From positions 198,926 to 262,925 of the forward strand of contig JBBABB010000001.1 of the NCBI GenBank assembly GCA_041657885.1: a stretch of DNA of 64,000 nucleotides, given 5' to 3'. Made by a program: the position numbers and the translations under genes. Under the pieces are notes generated by a model that saw nothing but the letters and a program-made list of their open reading frames with translations, had not been told where the DNA came from and searched no databases. Source of the stretch: Minisyncoccota bacterium. Lineage in GTDB: Bacteria > Patescibacteriota > Minisyncoccia > Phycocordibacterales > UBA9973. Shown here piece by piece: positions 12,516 to 61,449 of this stretch. How positions within the stretch are numbered: the first letter of the stretch is position 1; each line of letters starts with the position of its first letter.

Positions 12516-12543
12516 TAAAAAATAAGCTATTATAAGGATATGA

Positions 12544-12662
12544 ATCCCGTACGAAGCGTTTATGGCAAATTTCTGGAAGTTACATATAAGTTTTATTTAT
12601 GTCGAATTTAATTAATTAATATAAGCAACGGAAATGTAATCATTTCCTGCTTCGTACGGGAT
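12544..12662 (+). repeat. 119-nt element bounded by 14-bp terminal inverted repeats, copy 1; its 3' end overlaps the murG ATG
   Basis: ATCCCGTACGAAGC...GGAAATG-taat-CATTTCC...GCTTCGTACGGGAT; the last two bases (AT) belong to the murG start codon; about 78% identical to the copy at 35611-35729. Confidence 0.7.
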
Positions 12663-13794
12663 GAAAATATTACTTACAGGGGGAGGAACAGGGGGGCATT
12701 TTTATCCTCTTATTGCTATAGCTGAGAAGCTTGTTGAAGTTGCAGATAAACAAAAGGTTATTGATCTTAGGCTTTACTATATGTCAGACACTCCGTATGA
12801 CAAACATATGCTTTTTGAAAATAATATAACTTTTATTCAAATACCAGCAGGTAAGATGCGAACTTATTTTTCCATAAGAAACTTTTTTGACATTTTTAAA
12901 ACAGCTACTGGTGTTTTCTTTGGTATTATTAGTATGTTCTTCATTTATCCTGATGTTGTTATCTCAAAAGGTGGTTATGCTTCGTTTCCGGCAGTTCTCG
13001 CAGCTAAATTATTAAAAATTCCTGTTATAGTCCATGAGTCAGATTCATATCCAGGAAGATTAAATGTTTGGACTGCAAAATTTGCTTGGCATGTAGCTAT
13101 CTCTTGGCCTGAAGCAATTGAGTATTTACCAAAAGAAAAAACCATTTTGACAGGTCAACCAATTCGTAAAGAAATTTTACACGGTGACCCAAATGGCGCT
13201 TTAGAATTTTTCAAACTTAGTCCTGACTTACCAATAATTCTTGTATTGGGTGGATCTCAAGGAGCAGAAATTATAAATAATATTATAGTGGATATTCTTC
13301 CTGTATTACTTTCTCAATATCAAATAATTCACCAAACAGGGAAAAATAATATTAGGGATATTTTATCTCGTTCAAAATTACTTATGGAAAATGACCCTAA
13401 TATTGGAAGATATGTGCCAATGCCTTATTTGAACAATTTAGCTACTCGTATGGCAGCAGGTTGTGCAAATCTTGTAATTTCTCGTGCAGGGTCTTATATT
13501 TTTGAAATTGCATCATGGGGAATTCCTTCAATTATTATTCCAATCACAAATTCAAACGGTAACCATCAGAGGAAAAATGCCTTTAATTATGAGAGAGTAG
13601 GGGCATGTGAAGTTATAGAAGAAAATAATTTATCTTCTCATTTACTTGTTGCAGAAATAGATAAATTACTTTCATCACAACAAAAACTTGATAAAATGAA
13701 AGAAGGCGCTTTGGCTTTTGCATCTCCAGATGCAGCAGAAAAAATAGCTCAATCAGCCATAGACATAGCTCTTACTCATGAAAAACAAAACTAG
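12661..13794 (+). CDS. murG: UDP-GlcNAc:lipid I N-acetylglucosaminyltransferase
   Basis: KILLTGGGTGGHFYP N-terminus, GT28 family. Confidence 0.9.
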   Translation: MKILLTGGGTGGHFYPLIAIAEKLVEVADKQKVIDLRLYYMSDTPYDKHMLFENNITFIQIPAGKMRTYFSIRNFFDIFKTATGVFFGIISMFFIYPDVVISKGGYASFPAVLAAKLLKIPVIVHESDSYPGRLNVWTAKFAWHVAISWPEAIEYLPKEKTILTGQPIRKEILHGDPNGALEFFKLSPDLPIILVLGGSQGAEIINNIIVDILPVLLSQYQIIHQTGKNNIRDILSRSKLLMENDPNIGRYVPMPYLNNLATRMAAGCANLVISRAGSYIFEIASWGIPSIIIPITNSNGNHQRKNAFNYERVGACEVIEENNLSSHLLVAEIDKLLSSQQKLDKMKEGALAFASPDAAEKIAQSAIDIALTHEKQN

Positions 13795-19354: not shown

Positions 19355-19391
19355 TCTTCACTAATAATTATATTATTACAACACGAAATTA

Positions 19392-19418
19392 AATTTTAGT
19401 AGTTCAACTACTAAAATT
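19392..19418. repeat. REP palindrome overlapping the last three codons of the RAYT gene
   Basis: AATTTTAGTAGTTCAACTACTAAAATT, 13-bp arms. Confidence 0.7.
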
Positions 19419-20058
19419 CTACCTCTTCTTTCCTCTTTAATGTTTCTTTCCATGAAGACTGAGCAAATTCTAGATAATCTTTTTTATTTTTAAAATTAGA
19501 TAAAACTATTTCTTTATTACACAAACCTTTTACTTCGTCTTTTGTGTATTCTTCTAGGCTTGATTTACTAAATTCTGAAATCAAATTTCCATTTTCATTT
19601 CTATTATTAAAATTTACATAGGCACTTAAATTAAGAAGATAATTATTATCTTCTATTATTTTTGACTTGAATCTCCCTTGAAATAAAACACCGGATCTAT
19701 CATACTTTTCATTAAAATATCTAGTATAGCCACCGACACGTTGCATAAATTTTTCAATACCATTATCAACAAGAGGGGAAAGAATGAGATGAAAATGATT
19801 TTTGTTTATACAATAAGCAACAATGGAGACTAGCGGTTTTTTAGTAGTTGAACTACTAAAATTTAACTTTTTCTTTAAATGTTGTTGAAATATACTTTGA
19901 ATCGGATCAATCACATTAAATTCAACAAGACTTTGCATAAATCTTTTAAGGTCTTCGTTGTCTAAAATAATATTTCTTCTATCCGAACCTCTATTATAAA
20001 TATGATAATATTTTCCTACTTCAAAAATATGATCTCTCATAGGATTATTATACCACAT
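19411..20058 (-). CDS. REP-associated tyrosine transposase (RAYT; IS200-like Y1 HUH, COG1943 family)
   Basis: YHIYNRGSDRRNI, HUH motif NHFHLIL, catalytic region YTRYFNEKYDRSGVLFQGRFKS...NYLLNLSAYVNFN. Confidence 0.85.
   Translation of the reverse strand: MWYNNPMRDHIFEVGKYYHIYNRGSDRRNIILDNEDLKRFMQSLVEFNVIDPIQSIFQQHLKKKLNFSSSTTKKPLVSIVAYCINKNHFHLILSPLVDNGIEKFMQRVGGYTRYFNEKYDRSGVLFQGRFKSKIIEDNNYLLNLSAYVNFNNRNENGNLISEFSKSSLEEYTKDEVKGLCNKEIVLSNFKNKKDYLEFAQSSWKETLKRKEEVEF
19839..19861. repeat. REP palindrome inside the RAYT coding sequence (encodes FSSSTTKK)
   Basis: TTTTAGTAGTTGAACTACTAAAA in frame within the CDS. Confidence 0.7.
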
Positions 20059-20063
20059 TTATA

Positions 20064-20090
20064 AATTTTAGTAGTTGAACTACTAAAATT
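20064..20090. repeat. REP palindrome 6 nt upstream of the RAYT start codon
   Basis: AATTTTAGTAGTTGAACTACTAAAATT. Confidence 0.7.
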
Positions 20091-20128
20091 TTGTAATTTA
20101 TGATAATAAAGTGATATAATAGAAATAT

Positions 20129-21181
20129 ATGGAAAATATAAAAAAAATAAGAGTAGCTATTAATGGTTTTGGGAGAATTGGTCGGGCATTTTTGAAAATT
20201 GCTTGGAAGAGAGATGATATTGAAATAGTCGCGGTGAATGACCTCGGCTCAATTGAAAGCTTAGCGTATTTACTCCGACACGACACTGTTTATCGAGATT
20301 GGGAACATCCCGTGCGAATTGAAGATAATTCTAACGGGACAAGTAAGTTTCTTATAATTGATGAAAAGAAAGTTCAGTTCATTTCAGAAAAAGATACAAC
20401 CAAACTTCCTTGGAAAGATTTAGGTATTGACGTTGTGGTTGAGTCAACTGGTCTCTTCACTTCTTATGATAAAGCAAAATTCCACATTGATTGTGGAGCT
20501 AAAAAAGTTGTAATAAGTGCACCATCAAAAGGTGCTGAAAGCACAGTCCACGGCGAAACTATTCTCTTAGGTATTAATGAAGAAAAATTTGGCTCTTGTG
20601 ATATCACTTCAAATGCTTCTTGTACAACTAATGCAGCAAGTCCACTCATCGCGATTCTCCATGAAGCAATTGGAGTAGAGAAGGCAATTTTAAATACAGT
20701 TCATGGATATACTGCAACTCAAGCTCTTGTTGATGGGCCAAGTAAAAAAGACCTTCGCGAAGGTCGTGCAGCCGCTTGCAACATCGTTCCAAGCTCAACT
20801 GGTGCTGCTATTGCAGTAACTGAAGCTTTTCCAGAGCTTACAGGACTATTTGACGGTATATCTATCCGCGTCCCGGTTCCAGCAGGTTCAATTGTGGATA
20901 TTACATTCATTGCAAAAAGAGATACAACAAAAGAAGAAGTAAATAAAATACTAAAAAAAGCATCCAAAGACCCACACTGGGAAAAACTATTTGCAGTTAC
21001 AGAGGATAATCTTGTGTCCTCGGATATATTAGGCGAAAGTCATGCTTGTATCGCAGACCTAGAAATGACTCGCGTTGTCGGAGGTAATCTCGTAAAAGTC
21101 CTCGGCTGGTACGATAACGAAATGGGGTATACATACACGCTTGTTGACCATGTAGTTAAAACAGGATTAACTATTAAATAA
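20129..21181 (+). CDS. gap: glyceraldehyde-3-phosphate dehydrogenase
   Basis: INGFGRIGR NAD-binding motif, SNASCTTN active-site motif. Confidence 0.93.
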   Translation: MENIKKIRVAINGFGRIGRAFLKIAWKRDDIEIVAVNDLGSIESLAYLLRHDTVYRDWEHPVRIEDNSNGTSKFLIIDEKKVQFISEKDTTKLPWKDLGIDVVVESTGLFTSYDKAKFHIDCGAKKVVISAPSKGAESTVHGETILLGINEEKFGSCDITSNASCTTNAASPLIAILHEAIGVEKAILNTVHGYTATQALVDGPSKKDLREGRAAACNIVPSSTGAAIAVTEAFPELTGLFDGISIRVPVPAGSIVDITFIAKRDTTKEEVNKILKKASKDPHWEKLFAVTEDNLVSSDILGESHACIADLEMTRVVGGNLVKVLGWYDNEMGYTYTLVDHVVKTGLTIK

Positions 21182-26527: not shown

Positions 26528-26563
26528 ATTAATATTGTATCATAAATATGGTACAATATTAAC

Positions 26564-38966: not shown

Positions 38967-39881
38967 ATGGCATCAACCAAAGAAATTAAAAGAAGAATAA
39001 AGTCGGTGAAGAGCACAAAGAAAATCACGAAAGCGATGGAGCTTGTTTCTGCGTCAAAAATGAAGCGTGCTATATCTAAAACTTTAGCCTCTCGTCTTTA
39101 TTCATCTTATTCTTGGGAACTTTTGACTTCTATTTCTAGACGATTAGAAGAAACAACAAATAAATTCTTCGTAGAAAATGCTAATAAAGAAAAATCTTTG
39201 ATCGTCCTTATCACTTCCAATCGCGGTCTTTGCGGAGGATACAATTCACAAGTGATAAAGAAAACCATTGCCAAAATAAAGGAAGAAGTTTCCCCTAGGC
39301 AAGGCCTAGGGGAAAAAGTGGATATTGTTACTGTCGGCAAAAAGGGCGACAGCGCAATGCGCAGAACAGGCCAAACAGTTGTCGCAACATTCACAGATAT
39401 GCCCGACAATATAACACTTCGAGATATTATTCCTCTTTCAACTTATCTTACAAATGAGTTTAAAGATGAGAAATATGGAAAAGTTTACATTGCATATACT
39501 GATTTCGTTTCTGCCTTAACCCAAAAGCCAAAAATTAGAAAAATTTTACCAGTATCTAAAGAGGAAGTTAGAGAATCAATAGAAGAATCCGCCTCCGCTC
39601 CAAGCTCCGGCGTGACGAAGGAAATCCCATACTTGTTTGAAGGGGATACAGAACAATTACTCGGAATGCTGGCAGAAAAATTGGTTCGAATGCAAATATA
39701 TCAGATGGTCCTCGAATCAAATGCCTCGGAACAATCTTCCCGTATGGTTGCAATGAAAAATGCGTCGGAAGCCGCCGGAGAAATGATAGATGACCTAACT
39801 CTCGTATTTAACAAAGCTCGCCAAGCAGGAATCACAAGAGAAATATCAGAAATTAGCGCGGGGATGGCAAGTGTGAATTGA
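38967..39881 (+). CDS. atpG: ATP synthase F1 subunit gamma
   Basis: MASTKEIKRRIKSVKSTKKITKAMELVSASKM N-terminus and conserved C-terminal helix. Confidence 0.9.
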   Translation: MASTKEIKRRIKSVKSTKKITKAMELVSASKMKRAISKTLASRLYSSYSWELLTSISRRLEETTNKFFVENANKEKSLIVLITSNRGLCGGYNSQVIKKTIAKIKEEVSPRQGLGEKVDIVTVGKKGDSAMRRTGQTVVATFTDMPDNITLRDIIPLSTYLTNEFKDEKYGKVYIAYTDFVSALTQKPKIRKILPVSKEEVRESIEESASAPSSGVTKEIPYLFEGDTEQLLGMLAEKLVRMQIYQMVLESNASEQSSRMVAMKNASEAAGEMIDDLTLVFNKARQAGITREISEISAGMASVN

Positions 39882-41378
<1,497 letters not shown>

Positions 41379-41383
41379 TTAAT

Positions 41384-41474
41384 TTCTCCCCTCCTTACCA
41401 AGGAGGGGAATGAGGGGAGGTTCTTAATTAATTAGGAACCCCTCCCCAGCCCTCCCCTTGGTAAGGGGAGGGGG
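41384..41474. repeat. G+C-rich triple-hairpin element (copy B) between atpD and atpC
   Basis: differs from copy A at only a few positions. Confidence 0.65.
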
Positions 41475-41487
41475 AAATAAAAAACAT

Positions 41488-43856: not shown

Positions 43857-44172
43857 TACATTATAAAGGACATTACTACATAATAATGTCCTTTATAACT
43901 ATTTGTCCTTTATAAACTCTTATTAACTTCTTACGGGATTGTCCTGTAAAACTTGCTAAAAATAAAAAAATGTTTTCTAGTGTTTTTAATAAAAAGTTCA
44001 CAAATAAAAATCTTTGATACTTGACATAAATCAAATTATAATGCATTTTGGGATAAATCTTGACATAAACTACATTCGGTATAATCTGGGGGTATATGTG
44101 TTCTTGTTTTTAGACTTCCTTTTATTAATAATAAATCCTCCTAAATTCAATTAAGGCGGATAAGTAAAATAT

Positions 44173-61090: not shown

Positions 61091-61306
61091 TTATTCCCCA
61101 CTTCCAATATTATCTACAAATGTTTTACTGTGATTTATATCTTTAGACAAACGAGCTTTAACTTCTAGGTAAAATAAATAAGCAAGATACATAATAGCCA
61201 ATCCTGTAATCAAAAATAACACTTTGCGCCAATTATTAGGAAAACCTAAGAATGGTAATACCATTACCCATAAACCTATAATAAATAATGTTTTTTCTTT
61301 TCTCAT
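61091..61306 (-). CDS. hypothetical two-TM membrane protein
   Basis: start codon immediately abuts copy 3 of the inverted-repeat element. Confidence 0.4.
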   Translation of the reverse strand: MRKEKTLFIIGLWVMVLPFLGFPNNWRKVLFLITGLAIMYLAYLFYLEVKARLSKDINHSKTFVDNIGSGE

Positions 61307-61428
61307 CCCGTACGAAGTTGTTCTGATTACAGAACCAACATAAATTAACTATTAATATCGAAATATAACTCTATTTTTTCTGAACAAACTTACTCCCCCA
61401 TATTACATATATGACTTCTTACGGGACA
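61305..61428 (-). repeat. inverted-repeat-bounded element, degenerate copy 3 (inverted orientation)
   Basis: ATCCCGTACGAAG ... CTTCTTACGGGAC; inner hairpin GTTCTG-taatca-CAGAAC keeps the TAATCA loop with compensated stem. Confidence 0.55.
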
Positions 61429-61449
61429 GGTACTCCTATTATACAATAG

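Follow-up and report, generated by a model that had tools for sequence, protein, structure and literature searches.

The window analysed here is a stretch of 64,000 nucleotides from a Minisyncoccota bacterium. Close to its right-hand end, an ORF on the minus strand (61091-61306) encodes a 71-aa membrane-like protein, and a short palindromic element abuts its start codon. This element (copy 3) is one of three copies of the same repeat in the window, the other two preceding murG (copy 1) and atpF (copy 2). The features at the copy 3 locus are:

61306..61426, minus strand: copy 3, 121 nt, TCCCGTAAGAAGT...ACTTCGTACGGGA; the site is empty in relatives L244, L245, L247, L248 and L249
61320..61335, minus strand: inner hairpin of copy 3, GTTCTG-TAAT-CAGAAC, 6 bp
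61302..61305, minus strand: right copy of the target duplication, TGAG, which is the native start of the 71-aa gene, ATGAGAAAAG, and is the same in relatives
61427..61430, minus strand: left copy of the target duplication, mutated to CCTG

Direct reading of the sequence confirms the original prediction of a copy in reverse orientation with an intact arm against the ATG of the minus-strand gene. The gene-proximal arm, CTTCGTACGGGAT, is an exact match on the minus strand (61305-61317), and its final two bases, with the following G, form the ATG (61306-61304) of the ORF, the last A of the element (61306) thus being the A of the start codon. The hairpin sits 1 nt upstream of this right arm when the arm is counted as 13 nt, or 2 nt under the 14-nt convention. 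The far arm, at 61415-61427, reads CTTCTTACGGGAC. It had been described as decayed, which holds for one substitution (G to T) but not for the terminal 'C' (G on the element strand), which is flank and lies outside the element because it is the last base of the mutated left duplication copy. Similarly, copies 1 and 3 do share a loop as claimed, but this loop is TAAT and not TAATCA, the 'CA' being paired in the 3' strand of the stem. Between the stems of these two copies, the two loop-proximal pairs are the same and the next three are changed on both sides (A-T to C-G, T-A, T-A). Taken with the A that precedes the left duplication copy, the old ATG now reads ACC, and a TATAAT box (61438-61443) lies 6 nt upstream of this A.

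The exact 13-mer arm occurs five times in the 64 kb window, and a covariance model of the hairpin and right arm that was built without copy 3 recovers it with E = 0.012 (whole window, both strands), which identifies copy 3, as had been proposed, as a degenerate member of the same repeat. All three window copies fold better than their shuffles, with z-scores of -4.7 to -5.8. By global identity, the 95-nt interior of copy 3 (between the 13-nt arms, hairpin included) has no detectable similarity to copies 1 and 2 (0.61-0.65, versus a shuffle mean of 0.61 and maximum of 0.68), and no second family member with the GTTCTG/CAGAAC stem was recovered among the matches listed. The stem may either have been compensated in place or have been inherited from another sub-family. 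Copy 3 is an old, partly decayed member of the family.

The other two copies lie on the plus strand:

12545..12661, plus strand: copy 1, 117 nt, between ftsW and murG; empty sites in L242 and L243
12630-12647, plus strand: hairpin of copy 1, GGAAATG-TAAT-CATTTCC
12541..12544, plus strand: left copy of the copy 1 duplication, TGAA, with the right copy at 12662-12665
35612..35728, plus strand: copy 2, 117 nt, between atpE and atpF; empty site in L252
35697-35714, plus strand: hairpin of copy 2, GGAAATG-TAAA-CATTTCC
35608-35611 and 35729-35732, plus strand: the copy 2 duplication, TGGA

Here too the last A of the element starts the ATG of the following gene, murG at 12661-12663 and atpF at 35728-35730; the old ATG at copy 1 is found at 12540-12542. 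The murG site, filled in the window (...aaggatATGAA[TCCCGT..ACGGG]ATGAAAATATTACTT), is empty in L242, whose MurG is 92% identical (...taaatcATGAAGATATTACTT), and in L243 (85%; ...tgaaatATGAAAATTTTACTT). At atpF the window reads ...agatcATGGA[...]ATGGATTCACTT, and L252, with an identical AtpE, reads ...cttctcATGGAATCACTA. At the copy 3 site the window has TATAAT-AGGAGT-ACCTG[TCCCGTAAG...ACGGG]ATGAGAAAAG, and five relatives with an RsmI 82-87% identical have the empty arrangement rsmI-TAA-N6-TATAAT-N6-ATG(A/C)GAAAAG, with ATGCGA in L244 and L245 and TATAAT-N6-ATGAGA in the others. All three sites are thus empty in close relatives, and the window copies are therefore insertions. The start of murG, empty in the closest relatives examined (L242 and L243), is also filled in L056 and L158, in both by other sub-types of the family, so that this site has been hit repeatedly.

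Two further traces in the window recall the family:

43927..43955, plus strand: relic consisting of a right-arm-like CTTCTTACGGGA, TTG, and a left-arm-like TCCTGTAAAACT; covariance-model E = 0.08
20306..20340, minus strand: mini-palindrome with family-like arms, ATCCCGTGCGAAT ... ATTCTAACGGGA, inside the gap (GAPDH) gene

From its sequence, the relic looks like the middle of a tandem pair, where the two elements meet, after loss of their bodies; it lies upstream of two strong TTGACA/TATAAT promoters (about 44020-44090). The mini-palindrome matches a loop that is 6 residues longer than in a relative, and looks like an in-frame element remnant in a surface loop, reminiscent of Rickettsia palindromic elements. 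The protein reads EHPVRIEDNSNGTSKF at this place, and its 86%-identical relative GHKVEVVGSD. The window also holds a second, unrelated family of GC-rich intergenic palindromes (29911-30058, 39878-39987 and 41372-41481), which form nearly perfect hairpins of about 100 nt (GGGGAGG...CCTCCCC) and of which two copies flank a gene at about 40000-41375. A 28-nt perfect AT-rich palindrome, AAATTTTAGTAGTTSAACTACTAAAATT, is present in four copies with conserved flanks (1632-1681, 19372-19421, 19839-19880 and 20062-20091); these may be terminator-like hairpins or a third repeat family.

We scanned metagenomes, Hainich aquifer assemblies among them and the other records being mostly JGI metagenome contigs, with a degenerate two-arm pattern that left four positions free in each arm, and obtained at least 120 loci. 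The pattern demanded both arms intact and 76-106 nt apart, and decayed or differently sized members are therefore under-sampled. At least 118 distinct elements of 105-127 nt were retained after orientation. The element is also present in two GTDB genomes, in one of which it forms a tandem pair; a scan of genome contigs with the 14-mer GCTTCGTACGGGAT gave nearly all chance matches, the relevant ones being L041 and L056 only. The RsmI protein encoded in the window bears the NCBI label Candidatus Paceibacterota. The elements end in TCCCGT...ACGGGA, with terminal inverted repeats of the form TCCCGT(T/A)(A/C)GA.. / ..TC(T/G)(A/T)ACGGGA. Eleven arm variants occur, and the free arm positions are complementary in about 110 of 118 elements among the matches listed.

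An exact 4-bp duplication, TGNA, flanks 92 of the 118 elements among the matches listed (TGAA in 65, TGGA in 21 and TGTA in 6). In the same matches, the base before the left copy is A in 89 cases and G in 3, the right side still being ATG in the latter. The variable base of the duplication is the same on both sides (left -1 = right +2) in 89 of 93 elements among the matches listed (permutation p < 1e-4); with shuffled partners a duplication match is expected in 48 of 118 of these matches, because the TGNA motif is shared. The left flank reads ATG[A/G/T] in 100 of 118 and the right-flank position +3 is A in 112 of 118, again among the matches listed. Other duplication lengths are rare in this set (3 bp in 2, 5 bp in 4 and 7 bp in 1), and 19 of the listed elements have no exact duplication, seven of them being off by one base and about nine having a TAA that abuts the element. 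In 109 of 121 among the matches listed, the arm end and the following G form an ATG that opens a long ORF, counted as long when it reaches 60 aa, or when it stays open for 30 codons or more up to the end of the contig. The terminal A of the element and the TG of the right flank thus rebuild the start codon, and the downstream ORF is left intact.

The elements fall into sub-types that differ beneath the outer stem. In sub-type A this stem is followed by a 3' bulge, (A/C)CT, and then by a long-range stem (CGCGRTC/GAYCGCG); in sub-type B, to which the window copies belong, the right arm is immediately preceded by a local hairpin, (U)UACGG-stem-loop-stem-CC-U. The asymmetric side, bulge or hairpin, points toward the gene: the internal marker has the same orientation in 87 elements and the opposite one in a single element, among the 88 decidable ones of the matches listed. 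No transposase ORF is present in the elements, their only ORFs being peptides of 7-43 codons with variable interiors, of which only the arm-encoded ends recur (MNPVR...; ...CF/CL or ...LTG).

Tandem arrays also occur, in which neighbours share one copy of the duplication (L056 3561-3802, L156 2609-2834, L167 4817-5023 and L225 1226-1484); the second element of the L167 array is reversed, a rare exception. Short variants of 50-83 nt with a compensated terminal pair, CCCCGT...ACGGGG, were seen in L223 (8011-8060), L166 (404-468) and L157 (597-679). They are flanked by 4-bp duplications TTCA, TTTA and TGAA, and the L157 insertion turns the start of the downstream ORF into GTG, so that insertion is not strictly confined to ATG sites. 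At one locus found in two samples (L177 3037 and L182 289), the sole difference is the old start codon, ACG versus ATG, which hints that this decoy ATG may be in the course of being lost, as at copy 3.

The original prediction had argued from the compensated stem of copy 3 that the hairpin is under selection for structure rather than for sequence, and the family agrees with this. A local hairpin ends 0-3 nt before the right arm in 53 of 119 arm-selected elements among the matches listed, compared with a mean of 19 and a maximum of 33 in shuffles. As the hairpins are of unequal length, a covariance model was built from twelve of the same geometry, a set hand-picked for having the hairpin, in which 100% of positions are paired and 6 of 7 pairs compensated. 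It finds at least 72 instances in 100 sources. In the structure-aware alignment of these 72 matches, which is itself fitted to the model, 96.6% of cells are paired versus 69.9% after shuffling, and double changes affect 86 versus 24 cells. The further copies do not show random, uncompensated stem changes: at least 15 different stem sequences occur, and all are paired. The compensated inner hairpin is thus a conserved feature of one sub-type of the family, and that of copy 3 fits the family-wide rule.

The accompanying suggestion that this is an RNA or protein-binding hairpin is not supported. Across 117 elements among the matches listed, mean folding energies are -40.9 kcal/mol for the sense and -40.7 kcal/mol for the antisense strand, with 336 and 331 G-U pairs, respectively, so that neither folding energy nor G-U pairs carry a strand-specific (RNA) signature. 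Both strands fold equally well, so that no result speaks for RNA in particular; the constraint is strand-symmetric, as expected for a DNA palindrome or for a fully Watson-Crick RNA stem. No family of Rfam 15 matched the elements, with only tRNAs reaching the gathering score and a best E-value of 1.2 on copy 1. Strand symmetry, the lack of an Rfam match, the unrelated downstream genes and the empty sites together assign the structure to a mobile DNA palindrome. Small ribozymes (hammerhead or other), introns and ribosome hopping were considered and rejected, given the lack of core motifs and of an Rfam match and because the duplication and the empty sites show a DNA insertion. An integron attC site, suggested by GTTAGA / TCTAAC, was likewise discarded, the order of core and inverse core being opposite to that in attC.

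The elements are found mostly between co-oriented genes. Among the matches listed, a same-strand upstream ORF ends within 60 nt of the element, or overlaps it, in 84 of 118 cases. Relative to the old ATG of these matches, the upstream stop forms an ATGA overlap in 13 and TAATG in 6, and a junction with a 9-nt gap (5 nt from stop to old ATG) was seen in 9; it falls within the arm, as the TAG of CCCGTTAG, in 10, and as a TAA overlapping the first arm base in 8. By Pfam, the downstream genes encode YceG, MacB/FtsX, a polysaccharide deacetylase, an aminotransferase, two families of glycosyltransferases (one of them MurG-type) and SSB; FtsH, ValRS and ribosomal protein L22 were further recognised by eye. 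These are unrelated housekeeping genes, and the element is tied to no single gene family or pathway; genes with no relation to one another follow arms and sub-terminal stems of similar type (CGCGATCGC / GATCGCGATCT), which speaks for mobility. Promoter scans revealed nothing inside the copies directed at the gene, and an internal outward promoter was rejected; the interior is AT-rich, and its -10-like hexamers are equally frequent on both strands and have no fixed position.

The target motif itself contributes to the position at start codons. The window has 404 ATG[AG]A motifs inside genes, 29 at gene starts and 19 in intergenic stretches. From motif availability at tolerated sites, about 60% of ATGRA insertions would be expected at gene starts (29 vs 19), and 90% are observed there; a target motif, together with the removal of insertions that fall inside genes, therefore accounts for a good part of the start-codon bias, but not for the whole. 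If the enzyme needs T..A alone, the start-codon excess would be much larger.

We also looked at how translation could pass the element. The frame of the old ATG is free of stops through the interior in 35 of 93 elements among the matches listed, compared with 10-22 in the other five frames and with a mean of 10.7 and a maximum of 21 in shuffles. Among the matches listed, 24 of these relay ORFs stop at the TAA in the right arm, 4 nt short of the new ATG, and 11 stop at the TGA of ATGA. Where the frame would fuse to the gene, none of the 18 listed elements has it open. The element length classes hold 56, 36 and 26 of the matches listed, the phase that reaches the TAA being favoured. The window copies have no run-through ORF: two of them have uORFs of 23 and 9 codons, and copy 3 has no uORF. 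We also considered a conserved leader peptide (MNPVRS...) and rejected it, the interiors of the peptides being unrelated and their frame varying with duplication length.

A -10-like hexamer lies exactly 6 nt before the start in 11 of 62 window genes and at 7-9 nt in 11 more, over a background of about 1 per position; the boxes often read TGnTAnAAT (for example at 26539, 26563, 30083 and 62888). SD-like tetramers show no peak before the same 62 gene starts. This suggests leaderless transcription for about a third of the window genes. At the empty sites of copies 1 and 3, TATAAT lies 6-7 nt ahead of the ATG, which suggests that transcripts at these loci, too, are leaderless and, after insertion, would begin at the old ATG.

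Taken together, we regard as the best explanation, at a probability of roughly 70%, a MITE-like, non-autonomous family of mobile DNA palindromes, widespread in Paceibacterota/CPR-type metagenomes and with a new target habit, that of the start codon, of which copy 3 is a partly decayed member. A mobilising enzyme would recognise the outer stem together with the asymmetric inner hairpin, which would on this account be kept; it would read a hairpin or inverted-repeat DNA substrate in which bulge or hairpin marks one end, and the stems are probably required for mobilisation. The association with start codons could arise from purifying selection against in-gene insertions and from an (A/G)TGRA target preference. 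The host would tolerate such insertions through translation that starts without a Shine-Dalgarno sequence, on leaderless mRNAs and in coupled genes: ribosomes would bind at the old ATG and read on into the palindrome, opening its stem, and in about 38% of copies among the matches listed they could stop 4 nt short of the new ATG, or in overlap with it, and re-initiate there. It is thus probable that a genome without SD signals tolerates the element by relay or coupled translation. At copy 3, the old ATG would have been mutated away and the far arm would be starting to decay. In the 0.94 Mb of DNA fetched, we found neither a transposase nor a longer autonomous element with the family termini; apparent long arm pairs were combinations of separate small elements.

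The 87:1 orientation, unusual for cut-and-paste elements that make duplications, could reflect host-level selection on RNA. We also entertain, tentatively and as something rather less probable than not, that these are selfish elements specialised for the start codons of SD-less leaderless genomes, which would target (A/G)TGNA, contribute the A of the rebuilt ATG and keep the gene translated by juxtaposing old and new start at the foot of the stem, often with a relay ORF; some of them might have been co-opted as translational control modules in which the asymmetric hairpin is functional.

Among alternatives to the mobile MITE-like palindrome, an ssDNA element of REPIN or IS200/IS605 type fares best, though we consider it unlikely. 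It would be moved as ssDNA by a HUH (Y1, RAYT-type) enzyme that is itself single-copy and reads the shape of the hairpin along with a short stretch of flanking sequence, and the 'duplication' would be the cleavage or target sequence of this enzyme. Several features would suit such an element: a pair of conserved inverted arms, each about 20 nt long, that enclose a variable spacer, stems that have changed in a compensatory way, strand-symmetric pairing, a strict orientation relative to an asymmetric target and the failure to find a long autonomous form in 0.94 Mb. Yet in each copy the flanking repeat matches the native gene sequence at that site (TGAA, TGGA, TGTA, TGAG, TGCGA and others), as expected of a staggered-cut duplication and not of a cleavage site borne by the element. 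REP and IS200/IS605 elements are not known to leave a duplication, and no Y1 gene (PF01797) was present among the Pfam-annotated genes of L241-L253.

The elements are not gene-specific RNA regulators, and a host cis-acting RNA, in which a stem closing at the AUG and a hairpin that binds a protein or senses temperature or translation are kept for regulation, appears improbable to us. It would account for the constant position against the start codon, the near-uniform orientation relative to the gene among the matches listed, an ORF through the element that is open more often than by chance and avoids the frame of the gene, the covarying hairpin, the strongly negative folding z-scores and the state of copy 3, in which the gene-proximal arm and hairpin are intact and the far side is decaying. 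Against it stand folding energies and G-U pairs without strand asymmetry, the lack of an Rfam match and the unrelated housekeeping genes downstream, as well as the marks of mobility: a flanking target duplication, the existence of tandem copies and the absence of the element from the same sites in relatives with close orthologues (MurG 85-92%, RsmI 82-87%, AtpE identical). An invertible promoter, flipped by a recombinase between inverted repeats so as to switch the downstream gene, is hardly credible: perfect inverted repeats of 13-14 bp, about 91-93 nt apart, do lie directly upstream of genes and enclose an AT-rich interior with many TATAAT-like hexamers, but the internal asymmetry has the same orientation in 87 of 88 among the matches listed, the hexamers are equal on both strands and unpositioned, the promoter scan found no gene-directed promoter inside the copies, and the targets are essential operon genes.

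The genomes of CPR/Patescibacteria are very small and dense, and both their mobile DNA and their way of starting translation are poorly known. The mobile palindrome family would show how a transposable element can colonise a packed genome by landing on start codons and rebuilding them, and that insertion sites are re-used across lineages, as exemplified by murG. Because an SD signal is missing and -10-like boxes lie 6-9 nt upstream of about a third of the 62 genes, tolerance through relay translation is directly testable. For annotation, too, the element is relevant, as spurious small ORFs arise from it and the old ATG could be called as the gene start in place of the new one. Our search of the literature on the sequence, on MITEs in CPR and on leaderless Patescibacteria found no description of the element.

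The known systems most similar in build are the bacterial MITEs, such as Correia/NEMIS of Neisseria and ERIC/IRU of enterobacteria, which are about 100-160 bp long, encode no transposase, have terminal inverted repeats in a long stem-loop and a short direct duplication, differ between relatives in which sites are filled or empty, and are frequently co-transcribed with neighbouring genes (Delihas, 2011, PMC3184786). The present element shares with them its short length, terminal inverted repeats, target duplication and filled and empty sites. It differs from Correia and ERIC in its duplication, which is TGNA taken from the start codon where theirs is TA, and from MITEs in general in that its last base is the A of the gene's ATG, in its near-exclusive orientation and in its CPR host (Paceibacterota). 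MIRUs of Mycobacterium are reportedly oriented with transcription. They are intercistronic in operons, carry ORFs, have ends that overlap the adjacent genes (Supply et al., 1997, as reviewed in PMC3184786) and show tetranucleotide direct repeats at filled sites (PMC3184786). Our elements similarly lie between co-oriented genes, along the direction of transcription; a run-through ORF is present in 35 of 93 among the matches listed, though in none of the window copies. MIRUs, however, are units of 40-100 bp, often in variable tandem numbers, with imperfect inverted repeats and sequences unrelated to the present element, which has a perfect outer stem of 13-20 bp and a run-through ORF in only that fraction of the matches listed. 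REP2 of Neisseria lies immediately upstream of ORFs and supplies the ATG, and carries a promoter and a ribosome-binding site (PMC3184786); the present element gives the A of the ATG only, with no positioned promoter found, and REP2 lacks terminal inverted repeats.

REPINs, which RAYT transposases mobilise, resemble the present elements in being hairpin-forming inverted doublets with conserved arms, a variable spacer and compensatory stems, and are not known to have long autonomous copies; REPs are typically extragenic with a conserved 5' tetranucleotide of GTAG type. REP elements and RAYT transposases are a subject of Nunvar et al. (2010, PMC2817692). The present element is distinguished from REPs and REPINs by its 4-bp duplication and its position at start codons. 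PATE, derived from IS200/IS605, has sub-terminal hairpins at both ends, without terminal inverted repeats or duplication; the present element has perfect terminal inverted repeats and a duplication. Rickettsia palindromic elements are palindromic repeats of about 100-150 bp that are tolerated in genes or at their edge in a reduced genome, and are mostly translated in frame. Their fusion into protein-coding sequences is documented (Table 1 of PMC3184786, citing Ogata et al., 2000). The mini-palindrome in gap recalls them, whereas the elements of the present family lie just outside the ORF and rebuild its start codon.
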